A stretch of 64,000 nucleotides of DNA from a virus: the IMG/VR virus record IMGVR_UViG_3300030103_004875. One strand, given 5' to 3'. Position 1 is the stretch's first letter, and each line of letters starts with the position of its first letter. This document shows positions 7,215 to 42,233 of this stretch, piece after piece. Both the position numbers and the translations under genes were made by a program. A model generated the notes under the pieces. The model was not told where the DNA came from and did not search any database. It was given only the letters and a program-made list of their open reading frames with translations.

Positions 7215-7929
7215 AAAGACAGAAGAAAATATTACAGAGCCGGTAAAGCCTGTAAAGCCTGTACAGGAAGTTTTTGACCCTCGTGAATGGGCAAGGAAAA
7301 CTTCTGGGGCGTATCGATATGATACAATGGTAGATAATACACATATGACTCATGTAAACAGACCAAAGGTTATTCCAGTGAAAGAATCGTTTGAATGTAA
7401 TTCTCAATATATTAATAATATTGATGGTACTTTCGATGTAAAGGCAACTAAAGATATTAACGGTGGTGGACTTATTGAAGAATGTCACTATTGGATCTTA
7501 GAGTCTAGACTTAATGATTTTATCAAGGGCACAAAGGACAAAATTGGTGTTCGTTTACTATGGACTGTTCCTTGTGATGAAAACACTCACGGCTGTGAAG
7601 AGTTTGGACCTCACATAATCATTCCTCGCGGTAATGCAATGTCATATCGTCCGGCCGAATCCCCGAACGCTTACTTCGAATTTGATGAAGTAACCAGAAC
7701 CATTCGTTTCTTTGCCCTCCGACCTATTGCAGAGGGAGAAAGTATTACAATTCCTGTGCCTTCACCAGAAGCAATTGGACCTTCTGGGATTTCGGCAGAA
7801 GAATTCCAGAATATATCTGGTCTTGTTTTGTCCACTCCCGGTGCTGCTAAACCAGGCGGTTGTGGTAGTTGTGCGAAGAAGGCAGAGGAAAGAAAGCAGT
7901 TCCGTGATAGGAGTAAGGAAACTTCGTGA
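7198..7929 (+). CDS. SET-domain-like protein with degenerate NHS motif
   Basis: VKATKDINGGGLIEEC and SYRPAESPNA..FFALRPIAEGESITI match SET motifs; C-terminal GGCGSC. Confidence 0.65.
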   Translation: MTDTVEKTEENITEPVKPVKPVQEVFDPREWARKTSGAYRYDTMVDNTHMTHVNRPKVIPVKESFECNSQYINNIDGTFDVKATKDINGGGLIEECHYWILESRLNDFIKGTKDKIGVRLLWTVPCDENTHGCEEFGPHIIIPRGNAMSYRPAESPNAYFEFDEVTRTIRFFALRPIAEGESITIPVPSPEAIGPSGISAEEFQNISGLVLSTPGAAKPGGCGSCAKKAEERKQFRDRSKETS

Positions 7930-7948
7930 ATTTCTTTGTAAGTAAGTT

Positions 7949-10437: not shown

Positions 10438-10438
10438 T

Positions 10439-16733: not shown

Positions 16734-16739
16734 TTCTTC

Positions 16740-16767
16740 TTGACATATTTTTTATGTGTGATATAAT
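16740..16767 (+). promoter_or_regulatory. Sigma70-type promoter (TTGACA-16-TATAAT), probably leaderless
   Basis: Perfect hexamers at 16740-16745 and 16762-16767; ATG at 16774 with no SD. Confidence 0.8.
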
Positions 16768-16773
16768 TACCGC

Positions 16774-23157: not shown

Positions 23158-23790
23158 ATGACAAAAGTGATTTCTTTTTATTCTGATGTAAATGAGGATA
23201 AATACTACACAAAGTGTGCGGATAGACTTCGGGAAATGTCTTCCCGTTTTTCTCTAGACTTACACCTAGAGGAAAAGGAATCTCTGGGTTCCTATAGAAA
23301 TAATTGTTTATCGAAACCAAAGTTTATTAAAGATAAACTGGAAGAACTCAAACAACCACTGGTGTGGACTGATGTTGATACAGTTTTTAGGCAATATCCA
23401 CAGGCATTTGATATGGTTCCGGAACATGTTGATGTTGCTTTTTCATCCTCATCTCCTGATCTCAGAGGAATGAAGGCCTCTCCTTTGTATTTTAATTATA
23501 CGGATGGGGCTTTATTTTTCTTGGACGAATGGATAAATCGATCGGAACAGGTTTTATTGGATATGGATGTAAACTTTGATCACGAAGTTTTATTTGGAAT
23601 ATTTGGTTCTTGCCAGGAAATGGTGAAGTATGGCGTATTCCCACCAACATACTGTGTATGGCCGCAGGATGTGAATGAATATACAGTAATTGAGATGGGA
23701 ATGTCGGACGTTCCTGATAAGATAGAAGTTTTAAAGAAAATGGGTATAGATGGTAACCTTTTAGCAATACAAACAGTGGGAATACTATGA
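23158..23790 (+). CDS. Nucleotide-diphospho-sugar transferase (GT-A fold)
   Basis: KPKFI..L, LVWTDVD (DxD motif), DHEVL. Confidence 0.7.
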   Translation: MTKVISFYSDVNEDKYYTKCADRLREMSSRFSLDLHLEEKESLGSYRNNCLSKPKFIKDKLEELKQPLVWTDVDTVFRQYPQAFDMVPEHVDVAFSSSSPDLRGMKASPLYFNYTDGALFFLDEWINRSEQVLLDMDVNFDHEVLFGIFGSCQEMVKYGVFPPTYCVWPQDVNEYTVIEMGMSDVPDKIEVLKKMGIDGNLLAIQTVGIL

Positions 23791-24635
23791 AAAAACTACA
23801 GTGTGTGGGTGCTGGATTCAATCCAGATCAATCTTCTAATTCAAATTTAAAACCAAAAACATTTGAATGGTCAAATGAACATCAAGATATTCAAATCTTG
23901 ATCGATAACTCTATTCTATATGCAAACAAAATAGATAAGAGATTTGATCAGAAGAGATATGGATGGGTGTGTGAGTCATCAGCAATAGTTCCTCAACTTG
24001 CACAATCACTGGAGGACTTCTATGAAGTTATTATAGAAGAAGGTGAGTTCGAGGCTATATTTACTAATAATCAAAAATTGTTAGGTCTTGATGATCGTTT
24101 CATTTATAATTCAACTGGTAGTAATTTTCCGTGGATTCCTGTAGAGTCATGGGGAATGCACGACAAAATAAAATTATGTTCTATGGTTGCTTCTCCTAAA
24201 TTGGCATGTCCCGGACATCAATATAGGCATGAAATTGCTTCTAAGTTTAAAAATAAATTAGATTTATTTGGGGGTGCATGTGACTCTCCCCGAATAGGTA
24301 TTTCTGATGATTTAAATTTGAAATGGAATGATAAACGATCTGCTATATGTCCATATATGTTCTCGGTAGTAATGGAGAACGAATCTGTTCCAAATTATTA
24401 TACAGAAAAGGTGACAGATTGTTTTGCGGTAGGAACGGTTCCCATTTACTGGGGTGCAACGAACATTGGACATCGATTTGATGATCGTGGAATTATATCA
24501 TTAGATGATAATTTTGATATAGACTCTTTGAGTGCGGACTTATATGAATCTATGAAACCTTATATTCAAAATAATTTAGAGACAGTACGATCTTTAGAAA
24601 TGGCTGATGATGAACTTGCAAACAAAATCCTATAA
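23787..24635 (+). CDS. GT10 (alpha-1,3-fucosyltransferase-like) glycosyltransferase
   Basis: YMFSVVMENESVPNYYTEKVTDCFAVGTVPIYWG. Confidence 0.85.
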   Translation: MKKLQCVGAGFNPDQSSNSNLKPKTFEWSNEHQDIQILIDNSILYANKIDKRFDQKRYGWVCESSAIVPQLAQSLEDFYEVIIEEGEFEAIFTNNQKLLGLDDRFIYNSTGSNFPWIPVESWGMHDKIKLCSMVASPKLACPGHQYRHEIASKFKNKLDLFGGACDSPRIGISDDLNLKWNDKRSAICPYMFSVVMENESVPNYYTEKVTDCFAVGTVPIYWGATNIGHRFDDRGIISLDDNFDIDSLSADLYESMKPYIQNNLETVRSLEMADDELANKIL

Positions 24636-25497
24636 ACCTACAATAAAGAACGGTGATTATCTTTTTTCTGATGAATTAACATTTCCATTTCCGGTGGAAA
24701 TACATTTTACTCGTATGGAGTCATTCGATAATCCGAATGCTGTCAAAGTTCTTGTGTTGTCAAATGAATCTATGATGTCACCCAATCGATCTACCATAAG
24801 TGAGGTCATTGATAATCATAAAAAGTATGATCTTATTTTAGGAACCGATGATGAAATTATTGTTTTCTGTGAGAATGCCAAAAAGTTTCCGTATGGTAGC
24901 ACTTGGTTAAATAGAGGAAACATAAAACACCCTGATGGATTAGGTAGATATGAAGATAATAGTCCATCTTTTGATGGTATTACTAAAGATTTTAGTGTAA
25001 GTTTTCTTGCTTCTTGGTACAATCTAAATCGACCTGGTTACGCATTAAGGCAACAAGTTTGGAATAGAAAAGAAGAGATACCTATAGCAAGAAATTTTTA
25101 TACCAGTGTAAAGTGTTTTTCAAATGCACCCACTCCTCTACCCGGAGGGGAGAAAGAGGTACTATTCGATTCTCAATATCACATTTGTATAGAAAATCAT
25201 GCAATAGGAAACTACTTCACAGAAAAACTGATTGATTCTTTTCTTACATTGAGCATTCCAATTTATTGGGGATGTACCAATATAGAGGATTATTTTGATG
25301 TTGACGGAATGATTTTATTTGATACAATAGATGATCTATTAGAGAAACTTAACGATATAACTCCAGAACATTATTTCAATAAACTTGATGTCATGAAAGA
25401 AAACAAAAAACGAGCGATAGAGTATGCCAACTTTGATGAAAGAATTTTTAAGGAAATAATAAAGCATGATCGTACAAATAACAATGACCCGAAATGA
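24607..25497 (+). CDS. Second GT10-like glycosyltransferase
   Basis: YHICIENHAIGNYFTEKLIDSFLTLSIPIYWG. Confidence 0.85.
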   Translation: MMNLQTKSYKPTIKNGDYLFSDELTFPFPVEIHFTRMESFDNPNAVKVLVLSNESMMSPNRSTISEVIDNHKKYDLILGTDDEIIVFCENAKKFPYGSTWLNRGNIKHPDGLGRYEDNSPSFDGITKDFSVSFLASWYNLNRPGYALRQQVWNRKEEIPIARNFYTSVKCFSNAPTPLPGGEKEVLFDSQYHICIENHAIGNYFTEKLIDSFLTLSIPIYWGCTNIEDYFDVDGMILFDTIDDLLEKLNDITPEHYFNKLDVMKENKKRAIEYANFDERIFKEIIKHDRTNNNDPK

Positions 25498-26308
25498 ATT
25501 GTTTCTTATCAAAGAAATGATGCCTATTTGGCGGAAGTATGCAGATGCTTTTGTTTTTATGGATGATTGTTCCACTGACGGAACTAGTGAGTGGTTAGAA
25601 GAACATAAAGATGAGTTTAATATTGTGTCTGTTCTTAAAACCGAGGCTGCTGGAGATGCCACACATAAAGAATCAAATGTGAGACAGGCTTTGTTTGATG
25701 AGGCATTTAAGCATTCTGGTAATATTATTTGTTTGGACAGTGACGAGTATCTAGATGGTCACATAAGCAAGGAACAATTAGAGGAAGCACTTGAAAATAA
25801 TAAAGATACTCTACTGTATTGTCCGTGGATTCAGTATACCGGAAAGAATAGAGTAAGAGTTGATGGACCTTGGAAAAATAACTTCAAAGACAGAATATCA
25901 AGTTACTCCACTAGACCTGAGTTTAAAAAAGCGGAGATGCACTCCGAACATCTTCCCCATCCGGGTAGACATGGTGTTGTCAATTCTCCCGGTTTATTTA
26001 TAGCACATTTACAATGGTTAGACAAACCAACTGTGGCTGTTAAACAATATTTCTGGAAAGTAACTGATTATGTTAATCATGCTACCTATGGTCATGATGT
26101 TACTCCTCCCTCTGCGTATGACGAATCTGTTGCAAATTTTGATTGGGAATATGTTGACTTCGATTTTGATCTGAAGGTGGATCCTGAGATATATTCTAAA
26201 CAGGATTTGAAAGAAAGTTACAAATATAAGTTCATTAAAGAAAATGTAAAAAAATATAATATTCCAAACCTCAATGATTGGGGAATGAATATTCATGGAG
26301 ATGTATGA
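25466..26308 (+). CDS. GT2-family glycosyltransferase
   Basis: MTRNE, VFMDDCSTDGT, ICLDSDE. Confidence 0.8.
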   Translation: MIVQITMTRNELFLIKEMMPIWRKYADAFVFMDDCSTDGTSEWLEEHKDEFNIVSVLKTEAAGDATHKESNVRQALFDEAFKHSGNIICLDSDEYLDGHISKEQLEEALENNKDTLLYCPWIQYTGKNRVRVDGPWKNNFKDRISSYSTRPEFKKAEMHSEHLPHPGRHGVVNSPGLFIAHLQWLDKPTVAVKQYFWKVTDYVNHATYGHDVTPPSAYDESVANFDWEYVDFDFDLKVDPEIYSKQDLKESYKYKFIKENVKKYNIPNLNDWGMNIHGDV

Positions 26309-27034: not shown

Positions 27035-28348
27035 ATGAAAGAAATTTTAGAACTAGTAGAAAAATTTATCGATGAAAAGAATGAAAAGAAGTCATGGACA
27101 CCGGGAAAGGACTGGGTTCAATATGCAGGACCATATTTTGGTGTAGAGGAATATACTGCTTCTATTAAAACACTACTTGATGGGTGGTTGGTTCTTGGTA
27201 AAAATGGCATTCGATTCGAAAATCAGTTTCCTAAATTGATGCAAAAGGAGTTTGGTGTATTAACTAACAGTGGAAGCAGTTCCAATCTTATAATGATGTC
27301 TGCGTTGACATCAAAAAGATTGACAAATTTTCCTAAAGGCACTAAAGTAATAACTCCTATTGCCGGATTTCCTACTACAATAAATCCTATATTTCAAGTA
27401 GGATTTGAACCTGTATTTGTTGATATTGAATTAGATACTCTAAATTTAAATTTAGATCAGGTTGAGGAACGTGCGAAGGAGGGTTGTAAGATTATAACCT
27501 TTGCACATGTTCTCGGAAACCCCCCTAATATGGATCGACTAATGGAGATAATAGATGAGTATGGACTCATTCTATTAGAGGACTGCTGTGACGCTCTGGG
27601 ATCCACCTACAAGGATAGGGCTTTAGGTAGTTACGGTGACTTCGCGTCTTGTTCTTTCTATCCCGCACATCATATCACTATGGGTGAAGGTGGATTTGTT
27701 GCATGTAATACCAAGATGCAGGAAATTGTTGCTAGGAGTTTTCGTGAGTGGGGAAGAGGATGCTATTGTGTGGGTCAAAAGGCAGGTCTTCTGAAGAATG
27801 GGACATGTAAGAACCGTTTTTCTAATTGGTTACCTGCGTTACCTGATGAAATATTTGATCACAAGTATGTGTACGATGAGATAGGATATAATCTCAAACC
27901 TACAGATTTACAGGCAGCGATGGGTCTAGTACAGTTGGATAGACTCCCGGAGATCATAGAAAAGAGAAAGTATAATCATAAAAGATTATGTGATATATTC
28001 TCTAAGTATGATGATTATTTTGTAATTCCCAAGAAAACAGAGCACTCGGATCCTGCTTGGTTTGCATTTGCTTTGACCATAAAAGATAATGCTCCTTTTG
28101 CAAGGAAAGATATAGTAGATCATTTAGAGAATGCAATGATTCAAACTAGACCGTACTTTGCTGGTAATATTATGTTACAGCCTGCTTACGAAGGCCTCAT
28201 GGATCAGAATCAAATTGTTCGTGATTATCCAAATGCAAGAAAAGTTACCACTGATACATTTTTCTTGGGAACTAGTCCGGTCATTACTCCAGAGCAACTC
28301 GATTATATTGAAAAAATTGTGGATCAGTTTTGCGGGGATTTAAAATGA
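27035..28348 (+). CDS. rfbH: NDP-4-keto-6-deoxyglucose 3-dehydrase (RfbH/E1 type, DegT family)
   Basis: TNSGSSSNL, EDCCDALGS, SFYPAHHITMGEGG (His replaces the aminotransferase Lys), WGRGCYC..GTC Fe-S motif, DHKY. Confidence 0.92.
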   Translation: MKEILELVEKFIDEKNEKKSWTPGKDWVQYAGPYFGVEEYTASIKTLLDGWLVLGKNGIRFENQFPKLMQKEFGVLTNSGSSSNLIMMSALTSKRLTNFPKGTKVITPIAGFPTTINPIFQVGFEPVFVDIELDTLNLNLDQVEERAKEGCKIITFAHVLGNPPNMDRLMEIIDEYGLILLEDCCDALGSTYKDRALGSYGDFASCSFYPAHHITMGEGGFVACNTKMQEIVARSFREWGRGCYCVGQKAGLLKNGTCKNRFSNWLPALPDEIFDHKYVYDEIGYNLKPTDLQAAMGLVQLDRLPEIIEKRKYNHKRLCDIFSKYDDYFVIPKKTEHSDPAWFAFALTIKDNAPFARKDIVDHLENAMIQTRPYFAGNIMLQPAYEGLMDQNQIVRDYPNARKVTTDTFFLGTSPVITPEQLDYIEKIVDQFCGDLK

Positions 28349-29130
28349 AACGAGTGATTAATTGTTATAATCAGTATCATTTGGGTGATTGTATACAGAC
28401 GTTGCATTTTTTAATACATGCAACTAAGTGCAATAATGTAACTTTTAATTTTCTATGCAATCCAGCATATCACTCCCAATTGAAAGAGTTTATAGGAAAT
28501 GATGGGGTTAATTTATATTCGGTAGTTCCTGCTGATACAGATCATGAAAATTTTATTAACACATGGATAGGTGCTCATAATTATTCTCAGATATGTGATG
28601 ATTCTGATGTAATTTTTGGCGATGATTCTGATCAAGGAACATTTTTTCTCATTTTATCTAAGATTTTATCCGACAAAATGGGAATAGAATGTCCGTTTTC
28701 TAAAAAATCAGACATGATCTACAATGAATCCTCTTTGGAGTCTTCTTGCGAGACATCCATCGACTCTTACGATTATTTGTTTATCAATAGTCAAAACATG
28801 AGCATTCCCTTTCCAAATTTTGAAGAAGAGGTATCAAGTTTTATTGAACGGTTGCAGTTTAAGAATAAAAAGGTTATTACAACTACAAAATATCTTGACC
28901 TTCCTTGTACTCTGGATTATAATTTTAGTGTAGTGGACATTGCAAAATTATCTAAAAATGTTAAACATATTGTAGGTGTCAACACGGGTCCACTACACCT
29001 TTGCATGAATAAATGGACAATTGAGAATGTGGAAAGTTTTACAGTATGGTGTCCCGCAGAAACCTTTAATTACGGATCTAAGTTTAGATCCGTAAAATCC
29101 CTTGGAGAGATAGATGAGAGTAATCTTTAG
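28345..29130 (+). CDS. Putative GT-B (GT9-like) glycosyltransferase
   Basis: YHLGD near the N-terminus and IVGVNTGPLH near the C-terminus. Confidence 0.55.
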   Translation: MKRVINCYNQYHLGDCIQTLHFLIHATKCNNVTFNFLCNPAYHSQLKEFIGNDGVNLYSVVPADTDHENFINTWIGAHNYSQICDDSDVIFGDDSDQGTFFLILSKILSDKMGIECPFSKKSDMIYNESSLESSCETSIDSYDYLFINSQNMSIPFPNFEEEVSSFIERLQFKNKKVITTTKYLDLPCTLDYNFSVVDIAKLSKNVKHIVGVNTGPLHLCMNKWTIENVESFTVWCPAETFNYGSKFRSVKSLGEIDESNL

Positions 29131-29902
29131 TATTATTTTAAATGGCAAACATCATTTGTTACACAATGATCAATATAGATTTATATTAGATAATTGTGAT
29201 AAGTGGGTGGTAGTAGAAGGCGCATCCCAATCTAATGGTAGCACTCAGTGGTGTAAAACCATTCCTGATGAATATCACAATAACGGTGCAAGTGTCGATG
29301 GTACTAGAGAGTTTATGGAAGAGTTGGCGAAAACAGAATCCAATTTAGTATACGTTCCCTCTGATGGTTTCTGGAATTCTAAAGACGATCAGGTAAATCG
29401 TGCAATCGAAGAAGTCAAGAAACTCACTGACAAATGTTTTCTTTGGGAATTTGACATCGATGAACAGTGGACAGCAGAGGCACTTGATCAGGGAGAGAAA
29501 GAACTGACGGAAGGTAATCTAAAGTATGCCGGGTTTATGAGTAGATATTATGTTGGTAAGAATTTGCTCGCAAAAGGTCATTGGGGTGAAGGAAGGGATG
29601 GGGGTTACATCAGACTATGGGATTGGGAAGGTGAATCTTTTGTTCGTCATGAACCTCCAACTCTGGAGGGATGTGAGGATAAAGAAGGTAAGATGCTGAG
29701 TCCTATATTTGATCATTACAGTTATTATTTCGACGAGGATGTTAAATTTAAAGATGCTTGGTATAGTGGTCACGAAAACATTTATGAAAGATGGAAGTAC
29801 GTTAACTCTTTACCCAAAGAAGTTTTCCCGATCCACATTTCAGCGTTGATCACTGGGTACTGGGGAACAACTGATACTGGTATATTTTGGGAAGATCTAT
29901 GA
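29114..29902 (+). CDS. Putative GT-A glycosyltransferase
   Basis: VVVEGA, SVDGT, LWEFDIDE. Confidence 0.65.
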   Translation: MRVIFSIILNGKHHLLHNDQYRFILDNCDKWVVVEGASQSNGSTQWCKTIPDEYHNNGASVDGTREFMEELAKTESNLVYVPSDGFWNSKDDQVNRAIEEVKKLTDKCFLWEFDIDEQWTAEALDQGEKELTEGNLKYAGFMSRYYVGKNLLAKGHWGEGRDGGYIRLWDWEGESFVRHEPPTLEGCEDKEGKMLSPIFDHYSYYFDEDVKFKDAWYSGHENIYERWKYVNSLPKEVFPIHISALITGYWGTTDTGIFWEDL

Positions 29903-30549
29903 AAAAATTAATATGTTTTAGTCTATGGGGGAATGACAAGAAGTATACTAGTGGTGCTATTGAAAACTTAGAATTGGCTTCTACCTATTATCCCGGATGG
30001 ATTTGTAGATATTATATTTCTAAAGAAAATACTTCACCTGAACTTATACGAAAAATGAAAGAATATGATAATTGCGAAGTCTTCATGCATGATCAAATAG
30101 ATTCACAATGTCAAAGACTAATTAGATTCTTCCCTCTTCAGGAATCTGATGTTGAATATTTTATCGTAAGGGATTTGGATTCTCGGTTAGGCAGAAGAGA
30201 GGCCTCTGCTGTGGAGGAGTGGATACAATCTGGGCATGATTACCATATAATGAGAGACAATGTGGAACATGCAGTTCCTATGATGGCTGGGATGTGGGGA
30301 GCAAAGGGTAACCTTGTTCCTGATTTTTCTTCTCTAGTAGAGAAGCATAAGTTAACATTGGGAGAAGAGTTTGATACCAATGTTCAAGTGGATCAGCAGT
30401 TTCTTTGGAATTACATCATACCCAAAATTAAAAGTGCATTAGTTCATGATGAAAGCACTCATCTTGGGGGAAATAAATATCCTACAGAGAGATTAGAAAA
30501 TGAAATTCCTGAGTTTATAGGTCAATCATATGAAGATTTTGTATTATGA
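29899..30549 (+). CDS. Conserved glycan-cluster protein (GT-A-like)
   Basis: KLICFSLWG..Y..GAIEN...YPGW.CRYY, RFFPL, VRDLDSR, HIMRD, MAGMWG, DQQFL. Confidence 0.6.
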   Translation: MKKLICFSLWGNDKKYTSGAIENLELASTYYPGWICRYYISKENTSPELIRKMKEYDNCEVFMHDQIDSQCQRLIRFFPLQESDVEYFIVRDLDSRLGRREASAVEEWIQSGHDYHIMRDNVEHAVPMMAGMWGAKGNLVPDFSSLVEKHKLTLGEEFDTNVQVDQQFLWNYIIPKIKSALVHDESTHLGGNKYPTERLENEIPEFIGQSYEDFVL

Positions 30550-31514
30550 ATATTGAAGAAAAAAAAGTAGTTTATGTCACTGGATGTCTGGGATTTATTG
30601 GATCTTATGTCACTAGATTATGCCTGGATCGTGGTTGGTATGTAAAGGGTGTTGATAAAATAACCTATGCTGCCAATAAAAATCTTCTCTCGGAGTTTGA
30701 ATCCTACGATAATTTTTCATTTGTGCATTGTGATATAAACGAGTTAAAATTTTTATATGACTGTGATTATGTGATTAATACGGCAGCAGAAACACACGTT
30801 GGTAATTCTATTGCGAATAGTGATGATTTTGTTGAGTCCAATATAAACGGTGTGCATAATATTTTAGAGTTGATAAAAAATTATCGACAAGAACACACCA
30901 AGGTTCCTACTCTGTTACATTTCAGCACAGATGAGGTGTATGGGGATATAGAGGATGGTGCGCACACGGAAAATGATATATTAAAGCCTTCTAACCCTTA
31001 TTCTGCAACTAAGGCGGCCGCCGACATGTTAGTGCTGGCGTGGGCCAGAACTTATAATATCCCATATGTGATTGTTCGTCCCACCAATAATTATGGCATT
31101 GGCCAGTATGTTGAAAAATTAATACCAAAGGCTTGTAAGTTCTTGAAACTTGGTAGAAAAATACCACTTCACAATAATGGAACACCTGTCCGAAATTGGT
31201 TACATGCAGAGGATACGGCTAACGCTGTTATAAAGATTATTGAGTCTGGTATGAATAATGAAATTTATAACATCGCTGGCGGGTTTGAACAAACCAACAT
31301 GGATACTGTTCATAAGTTAATTTCTGTATTGACAGACGGGGAAGAATATGATATAAAAGACTATGTTGATACCTCATTTTCTCGTGTGGGACAAGATTTA
31401 AGGTATGCTTTGGATGACTCTAAACTTCGCTCTTTGGGATGGGAACCCAAGAAAGACTTTGATACAGAAATCATCGACATAGTAAATTACTACAAGAATA
31501 AATTTATATGGTAA
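30546..31514 (+). CDS. rfbB: dTDP-glucose 4,6-dehydratase-type extended SDR
   Basis: VTGCLGFIGS, DKITYAA, AAETHV, STDEVYG, PYSATKAAAD, NNYG..Q.VEKLIP. Confidence 0.9.
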   Translation: MNIEEKKVVYVTGCLGFIGSYVTRLCLDRGWYVKGVDKITYAANKNLLSEFESYDNFSFVHCDINELKFLYDCDYVINTAAETHVGNSIANSDDFVESNINGVHNILELIKNYRQEHTKVPTLLHFSTDEVYGDIEDGAHTENDILKPSNPYSATKAAADMLVLAWARTYNIPYVIVRPTNNYGIGQYVEKLIPKACKFLKLGRKIPLHNNGTPVRNWLHAEDTANAVIKIIESGMNNEIYNIAGGFEQTNMDTVHKLISVLTDGEEYDIKDYVDTSFSRVGQDLRYALDDSKLRSLGWEPKKDFDTEIIDIVNYYKNKFIW

Positions 31515-33322
31515 ACGATAGTAAAATTAGGGTAGCAGATTACATTGCAAATAAGATTCATGAAATGGGAGTGAATCATATTTTCACTATAACTGGCGGT
31601 GGTGCCATGTTTTTGAATGATGCAATATTAAGAAATCCCAATATAGAAGCTATTTGTGGTCACCACGAACAAGCGTCTGCAATGTCAGCCGTTGGTTATT
31701 CTAAGTACAGCGGAAAGTTGGGAGTTGTAATGCCAACAACAGGTTGTGGTGCAACCAATACCATAACGGGGTTATTGGATGCGTGGCAAGATAATGTTCC
31801 CATGCTTTTTGTATCGGGTCAGATAAATTCTCACCAAACAATGAGTAATTATGATTTACCATTGAGACAGATTGGTGTTCAAGAAGCAGATATTGTTGAG
31901 ATAGTAAAGAGTATCACTAAATATGCAGTTCTAGTTGATGATCCAAAACAAATTCGATACCATATGGAACGAGCGATCCACGAGGCCTTTTCGGGTAGAC
32001 CCGGTCCTGTTTGGTTAGATATTCCTTTGGATATTCAATCCACTCTCATAGATCCGGAATCTTTGGTTGGGTATCATCATACCGCCTCCGATGCTTTTGA
32101 TGAGATATGGTGGTCTTGGCCAAAACCTGATTTAGAAGAGGTGAGTGAGTATTTTCGTTGTGCTCAACGTCCGGTAATATTAGCGGGTAATGGTGTAAGG
32201 TTATCTGGAGCCAGTGAGGAATTTAAACAGTTTGTAGAGAAATATAATATTCCAGTGGTTAATACTTATCTTGCAGCAGATCTATTACCAACAGATCATC
32301 CGCTCAACATAGGTAGAGTTGGAATTAAGGGCAATAGAGCAGCCAATTTTGCATTGCAGAATTCTGATCTAGTATTAACGATAGGGACTAGACTAGGAAT
32401 TCCTGTTACGGGTTACATTTATGAAAACTTTGCACGAGAGGCAAAACTTGTTGTTGTCGATATTGATGATAAAGAACATCAAAAGAACACTATAAAGATA
32501 GACAAATTTATCCACTCGGACGCAAAAAAGTTTTTACAAAGATTTGAAGCCTCAAAGTGCCCAGACAACTGGTCCAAACAATGTTTAGGGTGGAAAACTA
32601 ATTGGCCCGTATTTTCGGAAGAACATTTAAATGACAGTGACGGTATAAGTTTTTACGGATTTATGAAAGTTCTTTCTGAATGCACTAGGGACGATGACGT
32701 TGTGGTTTCTGATGCCGGATCTGCTTATTATGTTTCCTCTCAAGCGGTTCATATAGAAAAAAATCAGAGGTATATTACTTCCGGTGCTCAAGCCGATATG
32801 GGATTCACGTTGCCTGCCAGCATAGGTGTTTCGGTTGCAAAAGATAGCGGAGATGTAATTGGTATTGTTGGGGACGGTTCGTTCCAAACAAATATTCAGG
32901 AATTGCAAACAATGGTTCACAATAAATTGCCTGTCAAAATGTTTGTTTGGAATAACAATGGTTATCTCTCTATTAGAACAACACAAAGAAAGTTTTTTGA
33001 TGACGGATTTATTGGAACCGATGTAGATTCGGGTGTGTCGTTCCCCGATCTTGAAAAGGTATCAGATGCGTATGGTATAAAGTATATACGATCATCCGAT
33101 ATAAATAAACTGAAAGATGATATTAACGAGTCTTTGAGTCATAATGGGCCCGTGATATGTGAAGTGATTTGTAAAGAATGGGATGAAGTATTGCCTACTA
33201 TTAGTAGTAAGAAACTACCAAACGGAAAAATGTTTTCTAAACCCTTAGAGGACATGTATCCCTTTTTGTCTCGTGAAGAATTTTTGAACAACATGATTGT
33301 AACCCCTGTGGAGGAAATTTAA
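31508..33322 (+). CDS. ThDP-dependent acetolactate-synthase-like carboligase (YerE-like)
   Basis: TGGGAMFL, HHEQASAM, TTGCGATN.ITG, VSGQ, GDGSFQTNIQEL..NNNGY. Confidence 0.9.
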   Translation: MVNDSKIRVADYIANKIHEMGVNHIFTITGGGAMFLNDAILRNPNIEAICGHHEQASAMSAVGYSKYSGKLGVVMPTTGCGATNTITGLLDAWQDNVPMLFVSGQINSHQTMSNYDLPLRQIGVQEADIVEIVKSITKYAVLVDDPKQIRYHMERAIHEAFSGRPGPVWLDIPLDIQSTLIDPESLVGYHHTASDAFDEIWWSWPKPDLEEVSEYFRCAQRPVILAGNGVRLSGASEEFKQFVEKYNIPVVNTYLAADLLPTDHPLNIGRVGIKGNRAANFALQNSDLVLTIGTRLGIPVTGYIYENFAREAKLVVVDIDDKEHQKNTIKIDKFIHSDAKKFLQRFEASKCPDNWSKQCLGWKTNWPVFSEEHLNDSDGISFYGFMKVLSECTRDDDVVVSDAGSAYYVSSQAVHIEKNQRYITSGAQADMGFTLPASIGVSVAKDSGDVIGIVGDGSFQTNIQELQTMVHNKLPVKMFVWNNNGYLSIRTTQRKFFDDGFIGTDVDSGVSFPDLEKVSDAYGIKYIRSSDINKLKDDINESLSHNGPVICEVICKEWDEVLPTISSKKLPNGKMFSKPLEDMYPFLSREEFLNNMIVTPVEEI

Positions 33323-33323
33323 T

Positions 33324-34247
33324 ATGCCAGCGGACAGCAAAACTAAAAAAACAATTTTAACACTCAACAACAATAAAAAGAATAATGACCCTACAGTTCT
33401 GGTGACTGCGTATGATTATCCTCAAGCAAGGATTGCAGACATGGCTGGAGTTGATGCTATCTTGATCGGTGACTCTCTCGGAATGACAACTCTTGGTCAC
33501 AAGACAACAATTCCGGTTACTATGGATAATATGATTGCGTCATCCGAAGCAGTTTGTAGGGGAGCAAAGAATGCCTTAATTATTGGTGACATGCCCTATA
33601 TGTCATATCAGCAGTCGAATGAACTCGCGGTAGAGAACGCCGGTAGGTTTATCGTTGCTGGTTGTGATATGGTTAAGGTAGAGGGTGCAATGACGGAGCG
33701 AATCAGAGCAATCTGTGATGCTGGTATCATGGTTATGAGTCACCTTGGACTTACTCCACATACACGAGCAAAACTTGGTGGATATAAGGTTCAGGGCAAG
33801 ACTGCAAAACAAGCAGAGATTGTTCTGAAGCAAGCCTTAGAATTACAGGATGCGGGCTGCTCCGCGCTTCTCCTAGAAGCGATGCCAAAGGAACCGGCCG
33901 GAATGATTGCAAAGGAATTGGATATTCCTGTCTATGGAATTGGTGCAGGTGATGAGGTTGATGGGCAGTTGGTTATTTTCCATGATCTCATGGGACTTTT
34001 CTGGGAATTTAAATCTAAGTTTGTTAAGAGATACTGTGAAGCAGGTCAAATTATGGCAAGTGCTCTTACCGATTATGTTAATGAAGTTCGTAGCCGACAA
34101 TTTCCAGCAGAGGAAAACTTCTATGAAATTAAAGAAGAGGAACTTGAAAAATTGCTTGGAGATTCTAAGTGGAAATATGAAACGGATCAAGGATTCCCGA
34201 CAAATCACTCAGCAACTCCAAATACGGTAACCGATAAAGACAAGTGA
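33324..34247 (+). CDS. panB: Ketopantoate hydroxymethyltransferase PanB family
   Basis: VTAYDY, LIGDSLGM..LG..TT.PVT, GDMPYMSY, VKVEG, HLGLTP, LLEA, GIGAG..DGQ..HD. Confidence 0.95.
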   Translation: MPADSKTKKTILTLNNNKKNNDPTVLVTAYDYPQARIADMAGVDAILIGDSLGMTTLGHKTTIPVTMDNMIASSEAVCRGAKNALIIGDMPYMSYQQSNELAVENAGRFIVAGCDMVKVEGAMTERIRAICDAGIMVMSHLGLTPHTRAKLGGYKVQGKTAKQAEIVLKQALELQDAGCSALLLEAMPKEPAGMIAKELDIPVYGIGAGDEVDGQLVIFHDLMGLFWEFKSKFVKRYCEAGQIMASALTDYVNEVRSRQFPAEENFYEIKEEELEKLLGDSKWKYETDQGFPTNHSATPNTVTDKDK

Positions 34248-35023
34248 ATATATTAGTAACAGGTGGTAATGGATATATTGCCAAAAGTCTTGTTAAAGGG
34301 TTTTCTGGTAAGTACAATATAACTAGTGTCACTAGGAATGATTTTGATCTATCGGATCCCGTTCTTACTTCTGAGTGGTTTAGAACTAGAGAATTTGATG
34401 TTGTTGTTCATACTGCGGCCGTCGGGGGAAGTAGGTTGTCTCCCGACGGCCCTGATGTTCTTCGGCAAAATTTGATGATGTATTATAATTTATTGTCAAA
34501 TAAAAAATCTTTCGGTAGGTTAATATCTTTTGGATCTGGTGCAGAACTGTTTCATAAAGAAACTCCATATGGTATGAGCAAGAGCATAATATCTGAGTCC
34601 ATAAGAAATACTGATAATTTCTATAACCTGAGAGTATTCGCAGTTTTTGATGAGAACGAACTGGATAGAAGATTTATAAAATCAAGTATAAATCGTTATA
34701 TTAATAAACAACCAATTATCATACACTCGGAAAAAATTATGGATTTTTTCTATATGCAAGATTTAATTTCTTTGGTAGAATACTATATTAACAATGATAA
34801 CCTTGAAAAAGAAATTAATTGTTCGTATCAAGGGAAAAAAACACTATTAGAAATTGCTTCCATTATAAATGATCTAGATAATTATACTGTTCCTGTTTTT
34901 ATAGAAACAAAAGATTATGGATTTTATTGTGGGGTGAGTGATTTGCCTATTAAGACTTATGGGTTGGAATCTGGTATAGAGAAAACCTACAAAATTATGA
35001 AAGATAATTGTAATGAAAATTGA
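34244..35023 (+). CDS. NAD-dependent epimerase/reductase (extended SDR)
   Basis: ILVTGGNGYIA, HTAAVGG, YGMSK. Confidence 0.85.
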   Translation: MNILVTGGNGYIAKSLVKGFSGKYNITSVTRNDFDLSDPVLTSEWFRTREFDVVVHTAAVGGSRLSPDGPDVLRQNLMMYYNLLSNKKSFGRLISFGSGAELFHKETPYGMSKSIISESIRNTDNFYNLRVFAVFDENELDRRFIKSSINRYINKQPIIIHSEKIMDFFYMQDLISLVEYYINNDNLEKEINCSYQGKKTLLEIASIINDLDNYTVPVFIETKDYGFYCGVSDLPIKTYGLESGIEKTYKIMKDNCNEN

Positions 35024-35915
35024 CAATGTAATATTTTCCACATCAGAAGAATATAGTAAGTTCTGGAACATCCAGTCCAAAATTTATAAAACTGCTCTGG
35101 GAATAGAACCTATCTGCATTCTTTATGGCAAAAAGAGTAACACCGACATGTCTGAAGAATATGGGACTATTATCGAGAGAGAATTTATTGAAAACTTGCC
35201 AAAGGTCTTACAGATAACATGGTCCAAATTTGATTATACAAAAACCGATCCAGAAAAAACTTGGATGATTGGTGATATTGATCTTATTCCTCTCAATAAA
35301 GAATACTTTACATCGAATATAGATTCTGCACCAGAAGATTCTTATCTACATTTAAATTTCTCAGCAATATCTGTTGTCAGGCGAGGTGTTCTGGACGGCT
35401 TTATAAAGGAAGGTCCGGCGGTTCTTAGGCGAATTAGATATGGTTGTCACGATAGTGGTGCAGACTTACCAGCACATTATCATGTTTCTAAGGGTAGTAA
35501 TTTTATTAATTTGTACGAATTAAATAGATCCTTTGATGAGCAAATACGTCATATAGTAGACTCTGGAATTTATGGTCACGGAGCACACTGTCAACCCCCG
35601 TGGCCAAAACCATCCCAAGATGAACTAATGAATTTTGAAAGTTTTTATTGGTTAGCAGAAGAAAATTATTCATCAGTGATGCTTTATAATGCACTATCTG
35701 ATAATAAGATAAAATTTATAGGTTATCATTACGATAATAGAATAAACAGAATCGATAGGAGCATGTGGTCAGATGAGAAAAATGATTATGTGTATGATAT
35801 TAATCTATTAAAACAGAAACATGTTGTTGATTTACATTGTTATCGTCCCTTCGATAAACAAAAAGAACAAATGAATAGAATAATTGATGAGTCTGAAATT
35901 TTTTCTGATAAATGA
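35013..35915 (+). CDS. Putative glycosyltransferase (GT-A-like)
   Basis: MIGDIDLIPL (DxD), RIDR, DLHCYRP. Confidence 0.5.
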   Translation: MKIDNVIFSTSEEYSKFWNIQSKIYKTALGIEPICILYGKKSNTDMSEEYGTIIEREFIENLPKVLQITWSKFDYTKTDPEKTWMIGDIDLIPLNKEYFTSNIDSAPEDSYLHLNFSAISVVRRGVLDGFIKEGPAVLRRIRYGCHDSGADLPAHYHVSKGSNFINLYELNRSFDEQIRHIVDSGIYGHGAHCQPPWPKPSQDELMNFESFYWLAEENYSSVMLYNALSDNKIKFIGYHYDNRINRIDRSMWSDEKNDYVYDINLLKQKHVVDLHCYRPFDKQKEQMNRIIDESEIFSDK

Positions 35916-37273
35916 AAAATCTTATTTGTATAACTGGGAGTTCTGGTGTAGGTAAAAGTACTTTATCTAAGTTTTTATATTTTATTTTTGGGTGTAATGA
36001 TGTAGTGACTATAAATGGTGATGATGCTCACAAGTGGGAACGTGGAGATACCAATTGGAACATACACACACATTTGAATCCATCATCTAATAATTTACAT
36101 GAAGAGATTGAAAGTTTAAAAAAACTAATTTCCGGTGAATCAATAATGAGAAAAAGATACAATCACGACACTGGAAAATTTGACGCTCCTGTTAATATTG
36201 ATCCAAAAGAAATCATATTGTATGAGGGTTTACATGCTCTATATGGTACTATGTCTGAATTATGTGACATTGGTATTTTTGTAGAAACAGAGAGAGATTT
36301 ACTGACACAATGGAAAGTTGAGAGAGATACTACAAAGCGGGGATATACTGTTGATGAAGTAAAGTCGGCAATAAAAAGAAGAGAAATTGATGAATCCTTA
36401 TATATTGAACCACAGAAACAAAAGGCTGATATAATTATTAGATTCGAAGAAAAAAGAGATAAAAAGGTTCATCTCGAATGCACATATGTAACGGGTGTCG
36501 GTAAGGAAATAGGAAAAAAAATAAAAACCATGTATGATAGGCATAGAGATTTTCTTTCTCTTTGCGAAATGACTTCTCTTGAATATGATTTAGTTCAACA
36601 CCAAGGCGGGAACATCTCCTATAAATTCGAAGATAAGATGGTGATAACTTCATCTGGGAAAAATATGGGAGATGTTACTTTACTCGATGGGTTTAGTTTA
36701 TGTGATAGTGAGGGAAACCTTCTAGACTTTAGTCAAAATCGACCATCTATGGAGTACGGGGTACATTTAAAGATACCACATAATTTTGTTTTACATACAC
36801 ATCCTATTCATTTGAATACTATTCTTTGCTCCAAGGAATCTAAAAAAATTGTTTCTGAAATCTTAAAGGATTATGATTATAACTACGTTCCATACTTTAC
36901 TCCGGGACAAGACTTGAAGAATAACTTTATACCCAATTCAGAAAACACTATAAATTTATTAGAGAGTCATGGTTTGATTTGTTCGGGTTATTCTTTTCAG
37001 GAAGTTTTTACAACTAGTATGGAAATAAACCAATTATGTAAAATTTGGTTACTTAAAAACTCTAAGAATTTTAAACAATTTTCCACAAAAAATAAAGTTC
37101 ATGGGTTTTTATTTCCTGATGCTGTGGTGTTGCCGGAATCTATGCGATCTGTTAATGATTATATGTTGAGTTTGCACAGAGAAGTCGGACTGACTTCTAA
37201 TTTTCTTTCGGAAAAGGAAATACATAAACTGAGTGGTATGGAAGAGGAAAAATATAGGAAATCTTTAGTATGA
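35912..37273 (+). CDS. Fusion of uridine kinase/phosphoribulokinase-like P-loop kinase and class II aldolase/epimerase
   Basis: N-term GSSGVGKST, GDDAHKWER, YNHDTGKF, EGLH, WKVERD..KRGY; C-term QGGNIS.K, RPSME, VLHTHP, PYFTPG, LESHG. Confidence 0.85.
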   Translation: MKNLICITGSSGVGKSTLSKFLYFIFGCNDVVTINGDDAHKWERGDTNWNIHTHLNPSSNNLHEEIESLKKLISGESIMRKRYNHDTGKFDAPVNIDPKEIILYEGLHALYGTMSELCDIGIFVETERDLLTQWKVERDTTKRGYTVDEVKSAIKRREIDESLYIEPQKQKADIIIRFEEKRDKKVHLECTYVTGVGKEIGKKIKTMYDRHRDFLSLCEMTSLEYDLVQHQGGNISYKFEDKMVITSSGKNMGDVTLLDGFSLCDSEGNLLDFSQNRPSMEYGVHLKIPHNFVLHTHPIHLNTILCSKESKKIVSEILKDYDYNYVPYFTPGQDLKNNFIPNSENTINLLESHGLICSGYSFQEVFTTSMEINQLCKIWLLKNSKNFKQFSTKNKVHGFLFPDAVVLPESMRSVNDYMLSLHREVGLTSNFLSEKEIHKLSGMEEEKYRKSLV

Positions 37274-38097
37274 AAATTATTGTTCCCATGGCCGGGCTAG
37301 GTCAAAGATTTGTGGATGCAGGATATACTGATCCAAAACCGTTAATACATGTTGCAAACAAAAAAGTAATAGAACATATAGTCGATATGTTTTCTGTTGA
37401 TGATGAGTTTATTTTCATTTGTAATGAGGATCATTTGTCCCAAACAAATATGAAAGAAGTTTTACACGAAATTTGCAAAAAATGTAAAATTGTATCGATG
37501 CCCTCCCACAAAAAGGGCCCAGTTTTTACCGTTCAGCAGGTTTACGATTTAATAGATGACGACGAAGAGGTTGTAGTTACTTATTGCGATAACCCATATT
37601 TATGGGATAGAGAAGACTTCTTGGAGTATGTGAAGAAAAATAAGTTAGACGGTTGTATATTGTCGCATTCTGGATTTCATCCGCATACACTCAACAATAC
37701 AAAAATGGCTTTTATGAGAACTGTTAATAATTTAGTTACAGAAATAAAAGAAAAAGAGTGCTACACAGATAATCCAATGAATGAACATGCCTCCACCGGA
37801 ACTTACTACTTTAGTAAAGGTTCTTACATAAAAAAATATTTTGATGAAGCAGTCATTAATAATATTCAATACAACGGGGAATATTATGTAACTCTTGTAT
37901 ATAACCTATTAATAAATGATGGGTTATTGGTTGGTTATTATGACACACCTTTTGCCACGGTTATGGGTACACCCGAAGAGGTGGATAATATTGAGGCATG
38001 GAACTCTATTTTAAATAAAGGTCAAGTTAAAAATGAAGATGACTTATTGAATTGTTATCGCTATTGGAAAGATTATTATGAGAGTGATTTACGTTGA
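37270..38097 (+). CDS. Sugar-phosphate nucleotidyltransferase
   Basis: IVPMAGLGQRF..GYTDPKPLI, YCD, GTYYF, NGEYYV, MGTPEE. Confidence 0.88.
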   Translation: MKIIVPMAGLGQRFVDAGYTDPKPLIHVANKKVIEHIVDMFSVDDEFIFICNEDHLSQTNMKEVLHEICKKCKIVSMPSHKKGPVFTVQQVYDLIDDDEEVVVTYCDNPYLWDREDFLEYVKKNKLDGCILSHSGFHPHTLNNTKMAFMRTVNNLVTEIKEKECYTDNPMNEHASTGTYYFSKGSYIKKYFDEAVINNIQYNGEYYVTLVYNLLINDGLLVGYYDTPFATVMGTPEEVDNIEAWNSILNKGQVKNEDDLLNCYRYWKDYYESDLR

Positions 38098-38374
38098 TGT
38101 TGACGAAACAATATGCAATACGCCGGACAACCCAAGAGTGTATGAAGATGCAAAACCGATCCAAGAAAATATCGATAAAATTAATAGACTATATGACGAG
38201 GGAAATACAATAGTGTATTGGACTGCAAGAGGAAGTCGTAGCGGTATTGATTGGTTTGATTTAACAAAATCTCAATTATCTAATTGGGGTGCGAAACATC
38301 ATAAACTTAGATGTGATAAGCCCTATTACGATATTTTCTATGATGATAAGACAATGAGAATTGAAGAAATATGA
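38078..38374 (+). CDS. Minimal HAD-superfamily phosphatase
   Basis: YVDVDETIC, WTARG, KP..DIFYDDK. Confidence 0.85.
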   Translation: MRVIYVDVDETICNTPDNPRVYEDAKPIQENIDKINRLYDEGNTIVYWTARGSRSGIDWFDLTKSQLSNWGAKHHKLRCDKPYYDIFYDDKTMRIEEI

Positions 38375-38814
38375 AATTAATAGCCCACAGGGGAAATACC
38401 AACGGTCCCAATTTAAAAAGAGAAAATACTCAATCATATATTGATGAGTCTATAGGTAAGGGATATGACGTAGAAATAGATGTTTGGGTGGTAAAGGGTG
38501 AATTATTTTTAGGTCATGATGAACCGATTAGTATGGTTGATTTGGAATGGTTACTTGGTAGGTCTAAAAATTTATGGATACATTGTAAAAATTTTAATTC
38601 TTTGCAGTTTCTATTGAATTATGATCAATTAAAATTATTCTTCCATGAAGAAGAAAGATACACAATTATTAGTAATGGTTTAATATGGGCCCATGATTTG
38701 AGAGAAGTAAATGATCAGTGTATAATACCGTTGTTGTCCGAGGAAGATTTGGTTTCTTGGAACCCCACCGAGGTTTTTGGTATTTGTTCTGATTATGTTG
38801 ATTATTTAAAATAA
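38371..38814 (+). CDS. Short glycerophosphodiester phosphodiesterase-like protein
   Basis: LIAHRGN, EN, DVEIDVW, LGHD, WIHCKN, GICSDY. Confidence 0.8.
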   Translation: MKLIAHRGNTNGPNLKRENTQSYIDESIGKGYDVEIDVWVVKGELFLGHDEPISMVDLEWLLGRSKNLWIHCKNFNSLQFLLNYDQLKLFFHEEERYTIISNGLIWAHDLREVNDQCIIPLLSEEDLVSWNPTEVFGICSDYVDYLK

Positions 38815-39540: not shown

Positions 39541-40776
39541 ATGAAACCAACTATTACTCTGTGTATGATTGTTAAAGATGAAACTCACGTTATCGAGAGG
39601 TGTCTGCGTTCCGTCGCTCCCTTCGTAGACCGATATGATATCACTGATACGGGATCTACAGACGGAACTCCCGATAAAATAAAAGAAATAATGGATGAAT
39701 TGGGTGTTCCCGGTGAAGTATACCTTTCTGATTGGAAGGGATTTGGTAATCATGCAGGTAATATTGGATCTCGTACCGAAGCGTTTCGTAATGCCGATAA
39801 TAAAGCAGACTATGCGTGGGTTATTGATGCAGATGACTCTTTAGTGGGTGAGTTGAAACTACCCGATGATGCTGATGCTGATGCGTACTCCCTAAAAATA
39901 CAGAGGGGTGACTTTGTATGGTGGAGAAATCAAATATTTAAAACTTCTTCTAGGTGGAGATATGAGGGCATACTTCACGAGTATGCAGCGTGTGATAATG
40001 AAAATGCAAAAGTTAGTCGATTGTTTGGAAACTATAGCGTAGAGGCTAGAACTGAGGGTAATCGAAATGTGGGTATAACTCCAGTAGAAAAGTATGAAAG
40101 GGATGCTGAAACTCTGAGAAATGCTTTGGAGGATGATCCGGATAATGCGAGGTATCAATTTTACCTAGCACAGTCATACTTCGATTCTCAACAATGGGAT
40201 AATTCACTCGAAGCGTATCAGAAACGAGTTGATATAGGTGGATGGCCTGAGGAAGTTTTCTATAGCATGTATAGAGTTGCAATTCTTAAGGGCATAAAAG
40301 GCGAACCTAATATGGACGTAATTAGAGCATTCGAGGACTGCTATAACTATAAACCTGACAGAGCAGAACCTTTATATCAGATATCAAGAATTTATCGTTC
40401 TATGGGTAAAAATGCTTTGGCATTTATGCACGCAAGCACTGGTATCGGAATTCCTTATCCAGACAATGATATTCTTTTCATTCAGGAGGAAGTATATAAG
40501 TATGGGTTACTGGATGAAATTGGTGCAACTGCTTTTTATGCAGGTAAACCTCATATGGGATATGCCGCATGTAAACGACTTATTGAGGAAAATTTAATCC
40601 CACCAGAACAAAAAGAGAGAGTTAGGCAAAACTACGAAAGTTATACTAACATTATGCAGCAAATGCAACAACAACAGATGATGAAGGAAATGGATTCACA
40701 AATTGATGATTTGAAGAAAAAGCAACAAAATAAAGAAACTGCCAAAAAGTATAAAAAGAAGAAAAAGAAGAGATAA
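39541..40776 (+). CDS. GT2 glycosyltransferase with C-terminal TPR repeats
   Basis: LCMIVKDE..IERCL.S, DTGSTDGT, IDADD, Y.G.LHE; ARYQFYLAQSY and PDRAEPLY TPR-like helices. Confidence 0.9.
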   Translation: MKPTITLCMIVKDETHVIERCLRSVAPFVDRYDITDTGSTDGTPDKIKEIMDELGVPGEVYLSDWKGFGNHAGNIGSRTEAFRNADNKADYAWVIDADDSLVGELKLPDDADADAYSLKIQRGDFVWWRNQIFKTSSRWRYEGILHEYAACDNENAKVSRLFGNYSVEARTEGNRNVGITPVEKYERDAETLRNALEDDPDNARYQFYLAQSYFDSQQWDNSLEAYQKRVDIGGWPEEVFYSMYRVAILKGIKGEPNMDVIRAFEDCYNYKPDRAEPLYQISRIYRSMGKNALAFMHASTGIGIPYPDNDILFIQEEVYKYGLLDEIGATAFYAGKPHMGYAACKRLIEENLIPPEQKERVRQNYESYTNIMQQMQQQQMMKEMDSQIDDLKKKQQNKETAKKYKKKKKKR

Positions 40777-42222: not shown

Positions 42223-42233
42223 GGTCAAACTAA

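Follow-up and report, generated by a model that had tools for sequence, protein, structure and literature searches.

A candidate viral variant of the yersiniose/erwiniose pathway in marine T4-like phages, with PanB beside a YerE-like carboligase

Results and discussion

Here we describe a sugar-gene cassette in a 64,000 nt stretch of viral DNA (IMGVR_UViG_3300030103_004875; hereafter the window, meaning the whole stretch that was analysed), which is part of a T4-like marine myovirus. The core of the cassette consists of genes for an E1-type 3-dehydrase, a 4,6-dehydratase, a thiamine diphosphate (ThDP) enzyme, the 2-oxoacid hydroxymethyltransferase PanB and a short-chain dehydrogenase/reductase (SDR) (Table 1). 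Its gene content most likely specifies a virus-encoded variant of the yersiniose/erwiniose pathway, leading to a nucleoside diphosphate (NDP)-activated 3,6-dideoxyhexose with an acyl or hydroxyalkyl branch at C4. We consider it reasonably likely that PanB would make a 4-hydroxy-2-oxoacid as the donor that the ThDP enzyme would attach at C4 of an NDP-4-keto-3,6-dideoxyhexose, before reduction by the SDR. Two things set this cassette apart from erwiniose-type pathways: a folate-dependent hydroxymethyltransferase stands where those have a pyruvate aldolase, and the genes are viral.

The core cassette

All of the genes that an earlier note on this DNA had named in the cassette were found in place, on the plus strand. 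The 3-dehydrase exceeds the cut-off of the RfbH equivalog model (471.6 bits vs 423) and aligns end to end with the E1 enzyme of Yersinia (3BCX/3BB8, 364 bits). It keeps the His-for-Lys motif YPAHHIT, with His212 aligned to E1 His220, as well as the iron–sulphur (Fe–S) cysteines Cys185, Cys243, Cys245 and Cys258. The 4,6-dehydratase is matched by TIGR01181 at 301 bits (under the cut-off of 365) and by the model for the cytidine diphosphate (CDP)-glucose type, TIGR02622, at just 75 bits; it has homologues, 60–81% identical, in 35 out of 86 related cassettes. The SDR, which carries TGGNGYIA and YGMSK motifs, has a homologue in 59 of the 86. The dehydratase and ThDP genes overlap by 7 nt (ATGGTAA), the ThDP and PanB genes are separated by a single nucleotide (TAA-T-ATG) with GGAGGA ahead, and the PanB and SDR genes overlap by 4 nt (GTGA). 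These junctions are those of translational coupling, and the description of this run as tightly coupled is thus borne out.

Identity of the ThDP enzyme

The earlier note had posed the alternative of YerE or of IlvB/IlvI, the acetolactate synthase (ALS) proteins, for the ThDP enzyme, and the comparisons place it nearer to characterised YerE-like carboligases. Its best match among solved structures, over the full length, is JanthE (8RPH, 442 bits), with all acetohydroxyacid synthase structures at 255 bits or less, and it is 29% identical to E. coli IlvI. The ALS equivalog scores 371 bits, far under its cut-off of 538, yet ALS models supply the top NCBIfam names for the protein. All three expected domains match (PF02776, PF00205, PF02775), and Glu54 and the ThDP/Mg motif G455-D456-G457...N482-N483 are invariant in the ThDP alignment. 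The tree was built without authentic YerE and ErwE sequences, and bit scores against Protein Data Bank structures were used instead, together with a Doudnabacteria homologue from an ErwE-like gene context; in it the window enzyme lies far from E. coli IlvI, and the Doudnabacteria enzyme is nested in the same class as the window enzyme. Two representatives of the other viral ThDP classes linked to PanB likewise have JanthE and PpYerE (5AHK) as their first matches.

JanthE, from Janthinobacterium sp. HH01, is a characterised YerE-like aldehyde–ketone carboligase (PMC12188165, PMC12247030). It differs from the window enzyme in having a CDG ThDP motif (8RPH/8RPI/8RPJ) where the latter has the canonical GDG, and its K567 pairs in the alignment with Thr564 of the window enzyme. 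By sequence, then, the ThDP enzyme belongs to the YerE-like carboligases, and acceptance of keto-sugars is predicted for it.

Linkage across viral cassettes

A survey of neighbourhoods, one of the checks put forward earlier, revealed a near-obligate linkage of 3-dehydrase, ThDP, PanB and SDR genes. The ThDP gene is the immediate neighbour of PanB, in either order, in 85 of the 86 related loci, and the arrangement is therefore not due to chance; in the sole exception (1/86) the contig ends 331 bases upstream of PanB. The order is reversed, with PanB first, in about a quarter of the cassettes. Approached from the ThDP side, PanB is present at 56 of the 75 viral loci that contain a YerE-like gene, and it accompanies every viral ThDP homologue of at least 50% identity with room downstream. 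No cellular PanB locus has a ThDP neighbour (0/78).

The sugar-modifying partners are equally consistent. All 77 DegT-family partners (77/77) have a His at the position of E1 His220, 51 of them being of the Fe–S E1 type and 26 of the ColD type, which is without the Fe–S cysteines. Because each carries the dehydrase His, the acceptor would always be a 3-deoxygenated 4-keto sugar, as for YerE. Viral-type PanB was found in more than 100 IMG/VR contigs and is 71–94% identical among them, while its ThDP partners form at least three deep classes and the dehydrases two types. A constant PanB with variable partners fits an enzyme that acts on a constant free metabolite, not on a variable sugar nucleotide.

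Some cassettes depart from the arrangement in the window. In a second architecture (L001:7548-20241), PanB precedes the ThDP gene, and the neighbours comprise a B12-binding radical SAM protein, a second radical SAM protein, GT47-like and RmlC-like proteins, a ColD-type dehydrase and a PfkB kinase, which suggests further tailoring of the branched sugar. Another (L221:2041-8408) has, in order, an E1-like gene, a YerE-like gene (42% identity), an open reading frame (ORF) of 526 aa, a divergent PanB and an SDR. This PanB is 43% identical to that of the window and above the panB equivalog cut-off, and it may represent a second, independent recruitment.

The position beside the ThDP gene

The place that PanB occupies is filled differently in related clusters, and the known pathways offer a precedent. 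The erwiniose cluster of Pectobacterium atrosepticum (the aldolase–dehydrogenase ErwI/ErwJ, ErwE and ErwF) follows the same logic as the window, with acceptor genes, an extender of a 2-oxoacid, a YerE-like enzyme and an SDR, and the caryophyllose (MMAR_2331/2332) and gastriose (MygI/MyGE/MygF) clusters belong to the same 'unifying scheme'. In all three the ThDP gene has an aldolase gene as its neighbour, the aldolase supplies a 4-hydroxy-2-oxoacid, and the SDR reduces the branch (PMC9306805). ErwE takes 4-hydroxy-2-oxoacids, including 4-hydroxy-2-oxobutanoate, and rejects pyruvate (PMC9306805). Yersiniose A synthesis in Yersinia pseudotuberculosis (DdhA-D/AscA-D, YerE, YerF) shares 4,6-dehydration, E1 3-deoxygenation, ThDP-dependent branching at C4 and reduction; YerE, however, takes pyruvate, and the pathway has no donor-building enzyme.

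Counterparts of each arrangement occur among relatives of the window genes. The Doudnabacteria ThDP enzyme, 55% identical to that of the window, is preceded in its cluster by genes for, in order, a nucleotidyltransferase, a 4,6-dehydratase, an acetaldehyde dehydrogenase, a 4-hydroxy-2-oxovalerate aldolase (376 bits vs a cut-off of 286) and an HpaI-type aldolase, and is followed by an SDR that is 33% identical to the window SDR (E=4e-37). A viral cassette (L220:4053-10230) has a window-type dehydratase (78%) and SDR (53%) and no PanB; directly upstream of its YerE-like gene, which is of a different subclade (43%), lies an HMGL-like gene with weak resemblance to 4-hydroxy-2-oxovalerate aldolase. 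Judged by gene content, nature has here exchanged one presumed donor-building enzyme for another. Three T4-like contigs with gp45/gp44 near (L224, L229 and L231; ~3500-10400) encode E1, a YerE-like enzyme (39%), an SDR and a 4,6-dehydratase, together with a homologue of the window ORF at 29887, and no PanB. They look like plain yersiniose-like cassettes with nothing in this position, and are nearer to yersiniose than the window is. Across the window, these viral contigs and the Doudnabacteria cluster, the slot thus holds nothing, an aldolase or PanB, and a change in its content goes with a change of ThDP subclade.

PanB, then, fills the slot of the pyruvate aldolases, and by analogy it would play the aldolase's role. 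The suggestion of the earlier note that PanB builds a hydroxymethylated 2-oxoacid donor gains support from this analogy, since it fits the scheme of PMC9306805 and aldolases take the PanB position in relatives. The window differs from the erwiniose cluster in chemistry, PanB transferring a hydroxymethyl group from methylene-tetrahydrofolate on a phosphoenolpyruvate mutase/isocitrate lyase fold in place of a pyruvate aldolase, so that its branch would gain one hydroxymethyl carbon, possibly beside a quaternary centre. It differs also in being viral, in a 4,6-dehydratase that resembles the deoxythymidine diphosphate (dTDP) type and not the CDP type, and in having no E3 reductase in the window.

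A virus-only PanB lineage with orthodox active-site residues

The viral PanB scores 283 bits against the cut-off of 207 of the panB equivalog (TIGR00222). It shares fold and catalytic and Mg-binding residues with the housekeeping PanB/ketopantoate hydroxymethyltransferases (E. coli 1M3U, N. meningitidis 1O66, M. tuberculosis 1OY0), with D45, S46, D84, K112, E114, H136 and E181 (E. coli numbering) 100% kept in the viral clade. In E. coli PanB, I202 and I212 are specificity hotspots, and the wild-type enzyme hydroxymethylates a range of 2-oxoacids to 4-hydroxy-2-oxoacids (PMC7611260). The viral enzymes keep I202 and have Leu at the I212 position, as do most of the cellular PanBs compared. Because its catalytic and Mg-binding residues and the pocket residue I202 are kept, the viral PanB still looks like an enzyme of 2-oxoacids.

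In other respects the viral enzymes stand apart from their housekeeping counterparts, to which they are about 40–50% identical. They have seven clade-specific substitutions near catalytic residues (among them I113V, G135S, Q142H, S143T, V183M and L213V), including the invariant change of LTPQS to LTPHT, and a conserved C-terminal extension of 40 aa, by which PanB might dock onto the ThDP enzyme and allow channelling. The 149-sequence tree joins the 70 viral rows in a single clade (Shimodaira–Hasegawa-like approximate likelihood ratio test, SH-aLRT, 100), which sits on a long stem of 0.97 substitutions per site and has short branches within it. A grouping of this PanB with housekeeping enzymes would have told against the earlier note, and the tree instead sets it in a separate clade confined to viruses. 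Each computational check put forward in that note favoured its interpretation. PHROGs holds no family for it. The nearest outsider is a PanB from a Bathyarchaeia metagenome-assembled genome (MAG) (L098:115-930, 51% identity; SH-aLRT 98, long branches), whose gene stands at the start of its contig, with the upstream neighbour outside it.

Among 185,579 prokaryote species, searched with one genome per species, the cellular PanBs found are at most 52% identical to the viral type. Just two contigs from prokaryote genomes exceed this value, one in a Pelagibacter MAG (L087, 75%) and one in a Prochlorococcus single-cell assembly (L088, 72%), the latter with a ThDP gene adjoining PanB. Both are probably phage DNA and offer possible hints as to hosts.

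In the surveyed loci the viral PanB adjoins a YerE-like gene and not pan genes, unlike housekeeping PanB. Searches by tblastn with the E. coli proteins found no PanC, PanD or IlvH in the window or in the ~87-88 viral-type loci. The earlier statement that panC, panD, panE, ilvC and ilvD are absent from the window therefore stands for the first two; for PanE, IlvC and IlvD, which were not searched by name, it holds only as the lack of any such Pfam family among the 37 ORFs scanned (10397-49662). The absence of pan genes applies to the 64-kb window and the viral loci, not to the whole phage genome, and adjacency to panC is itself a poor marker for cellular PanB loci, E. coli PanC having been found at 1 of 78.

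Proposed pathway and its alternatives

The order of steps, donor, nucleotide, product and target set out here are those that we infer from these genes. A nucleotidyltransferase (encoded from 37270) and the RmlB-like 4,6-dehydratase would provide an NDP-4-keto-6-deoxyhexose, from which the Fe–S E1 enzyme, served by host ferredoxin or flavodoxin, would strip the 3-OH to give the NDP-4-keto-3,6-dideoxyhexose. In parallel, PanB would use methylene-tetrahydrofolate to hydroxymethylate C3 of a 2-oxoacid of the host, yielding a 4-hydroxy-2-oxoacid. Since the pocket is like that of housekeeping PanB, conversion of 2-oxoisovalerate to ketopantoate is our first guess, and the branch would then be of neopentyl type; 2-oxobutanoate and pyruvate are alternative substrates. 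The YerE-like enzyme would then decarboxylate this donor and add the acyl anion equivalent to the C4 ketone, forming a tertiary alcohol with a 3-hydroxyacyl branch, the ketone of which the SDR would reduce, and neighbouring glycosyltransferases would attach the sugar to its target. Carried to its end, this scheme would specify a new sugar, a 3,6-dideoxyhexose with a pantoyl-like 1,3-dihydroxy-2,2-dimethylpropyl or shorter 1,3-dihydroxyalkyl branch at C4, derived from ketopantoate by a virus-only PanB and displayed on virion fibres or on the surface of infected cells; in that full detail the prediction is a tentative one, and we regard it as rather doubtful.

Several observations weigh against the proposed pathway. 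Which of PanB and the ThDP enzyme acts first cannot be told from sequence alone, and the PanB pocket is orthodox enough for plain ketopantoate synthesis. No residue separates PanB-linked from PanB-free ThDP enzymes when conservation of at least 90% in one set and at most 20% in the other is required. No PanB–ThDP fusion protein was found, fusions being confined to cellular-type PanB with PanC, PanE or other domains, which is weak evidence. The nucleotide carrier is ambiguous, because the 4,6-dehydratase is dTDP-like and the E1 enzyme is nearest to CDP-type enzymes. As for an E3-type reductase or ferredoxin, the window lacks the Cys motif of plant-type ferredoxins in all its frames, and no reductase family turned up among the window ORFs scanned for an E3 partner of E1, so that E1 would have to depend on a host ferredoxin/flavodoxin system; SpnQ is an example of an E1 homologue that uses general host reductases. 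Finally, we know of no natural sugar with the predicted branch.

The same enzymes could also act in another order, with the ThDP enzyme transferring acetyl from pyruvate to C4, PanB hydroxymethylating the enolisable branch and the SDR reducing it. A sugar-bound alpha-hydroxyketone, like a 2-oxoacid, could chelate Mg2+, the gene order ThDP–PanB–SDR in the window matches this order of reactions, and the substitutions flanking the catalytic residues, with the C-terminal extension, could reflect a new and larger substrate. We nevertheless consider this order unlikely. The residues that bind the 2-oxoacid are all kept, the gene order is turned round in the cassettes with PanB first, and PanB does not co-vary with its divergent ThDP and dehydrase partners, which would be expected of it if its substrate were a sugar nucleotide. 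In the one tested system, moreover, the aldol step comes first and ErwE rejects pyruvate (PMC9306805), and PanB-free cassettes use another ThDP subclade, which suggests that ThDP specificity tracks the presence of PanB. Alternatively, the joint product of PanB and the ThDP enzyme might be a small free compound, for instance a hydroxy-acyloin or a hydroxy acid, that serves as a non-carbohydrate substituent of the glycan or is put to some other use, without any C–C branch on the sugar. Such a role would suit enzymes that are promiscuous carboligases in vitro, as the YerE-like ones are (PMC12247030), and for which, in the case of JanthE, the physiological substrates are not known (PMC12188165); the pair is also kept where other sugar genes vary. 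We think it more unlikely still, since the pair is invariably accompanied by a 3-dehydrase whose product is exactly the type of acceptor used by YerE, a homologue of the SDR that trails ErwE-like genes is present, and the cassettes have no conserved acyltransferase or ligase.

It is very improbable, by contrast, that these are ordinary auxiliary metabolic genes, that is, an ALS and a PanB that boosts pantothenate and coenzyme A (CoA). Model scores would lead annotation that way, with PanB above its equivalog cut-off and ALS models as the top names for the ThDP protein, and viral PanB has been taken in the literature for an auxiliary gene of vitamin-B5 metabolism (PMC8940887). Against it stand the shortfall of the ThDP enzyme from the ALS cut-off and its much higher score with JanthE, the lack of IlvH/N, PanC and PanD from the window and the viral-type loci, the lack of ThDP neighbours at all 78 cellular PanB loci, the restriction of PanC and PanE fusions to cellular PanB, and the translational coupling of the genes inside a deoxysugar cassette.

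Implications

Our literature search found no paper that links PanB with YerE or with a branched sugar. Viral 'pantoate transferase' is reported to be the most abundant vitamin-related auxiliary gene of one marine virome, where it was taken to boost CoA (PMC8940887). Genes of ocean viruses that have been labelled 'pantothenate' or 'acetolactate synthase' are probably glycan genes instead, and, if so, the inference concerning vitamin B5 and CoA, as well as the parallel 'acetolactate synthase' calls, needs revision. With this pathway the aldolase/ThDP logic would gain a folate-dependent hydroxymethyltransferase as a donor-building enzyme of a new type, and a new sugar structure is predicted. More than 100 contigs of uncultured large marine phages would then devote 10–17 kb to private glycan synthesis, raising the question of what is glycosylated. 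For biocatalysis, the PanB/ThDP pair would amount to a ready-made cascade towards hindered tertiary alcohols.

Phage setting and the remaining island genes

The T4-like affiliation of the window rests on the replication genes listed in Table 1, among them a gp43 polymerase that is ~50% identical to polymerases of marine cyanomyoviruses, with no cultured phage nearer. The cassette lies in a 17-kb island between regA and gp43, in which the sugar genes are co-oriented and mostly overlapping. In a megablast comparison with 50,697 phage records the island had no matches, and in the same collection protein matches to PanB and the ThDP enzyme came mostly from bacterial-looking records, at less than 50% identity.

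Table 1. Features of the window, in map order. aa, amino acids; PMP, pyridoxamine phosphate.
Feature	Position	Strand	Basis or remark
RNase H	from 19381	+	replication-module gene, T4-like marker
gp45 clamp	from 20397	+	T4-like marker
gp44 clamp loader	from 21102	+	T4-like marker
RegA	from 22750	+	T4-like marker
GT10-like, GT10-like and GT2 glycosyltransferases	23787..26308	+	Pfam; homologues recur in related cassettes
E1/RfbH-type PMP- and [2Fe-2S]-dependent NDP-4-keto-6-deoxyhexose 3-dehydrase	27035..28348	+	NCBIfam RfbH equivalog
Three overlapping ORFs (266/262/220 aa)	28330..30549	+	no family match; outside conserved core
RmlB-like NDP-glucose 4,6-dehydratase	30546..31514	+	TIGR01181
YerE/JanthE-like ThDP carboligase, putative branching enzyme	31508..33322	+	three TPP domains
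Virus-clade PanB (2-oxoacid C3 hydroxymethyltransferase), proposed donor-builder	33324..34247	+	panB equivalog
Short extended SDR, proposed branch ketoreductase (YerF/ErwF counterpart)	34244..35023	+	Pfam Epimerase, RmlD_sub_bind
300-aa ORF, then PRK/uridine-kinase + class II aldolase fusion	35013..37273	+	island, outside conserved core
Sugar-1-phosphate nucleotidyltransferase (275 aa), 98-aa HAD-like fragment and conserved 147-aa protein (phrog_34507)	37270..38814	+	
GT2-TPR glycosyltransferase, island end	39541..40776	+	Pfam; homologues in 5 related cassettes
gp43 family-B polymerase	47137 onwards	+	T4-like marker

The three overlapping ORFs between the 3-dehydrase and 4,6-dehydratase genes are probably glycosyltransferases, although they have no Pfam, NCBIfam or PHROG match and the sole trace is to GT2, in the middle ORF (E=0.08). 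The third of them has a conserved R-D-x-D-S-R stretch and, at seven loci on six other viral contigs, homologues that adjoin the 4,6-dehydratase gene. Downstream of the SDR, the 300-aa ORF has no family match in Pfam, NCBIfam or PHROGs, and the gene that follows it (35912-37273) encodes a phosphoribulokinase/uridine-kinase-like domain fused to a class II aldolase/epimerase domain (Pfam PRK + Aldolase_II); homologues of these genes occur in only 1 of the 86 cassettes (L061).

The next three genes probably form a sugar-activation sub-module, to judge from the weak matches of the nucleotidyltransferase to NTP_transferase, RmlA and the GlmU N-domain. Homologues of the nucleotidyltransferase, the HAD-like protein and the 147-aa protein occur in 16, 25 and 14 of the 86 cassettes, respectively. 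The HAD-like ORF of the window (38078-38374) is only 98 aa long and may be truncated or split; in another cassette (L003) a full-length HAD (beta-phosphoglucomutase-like) domain is fused to an NTP-transferase domain.

Directly after the island lies a gene for a protein of 467 aa with collagen triple-helix repeats (40819-42222), followed by one for a 736-aa protein without a family (the two spanning 40819-44444). A collagen-like gene likewise trails the cassette in one other contig (L067), and these genes make virion fibres one candidate target of the glycan. On the other side, within the replication module (10397-18360), two large ORFs of 657 and 1467 aa without a Pfam family precede a protein of 528 aa that ends in an N6/N4 DNA methylase domain.

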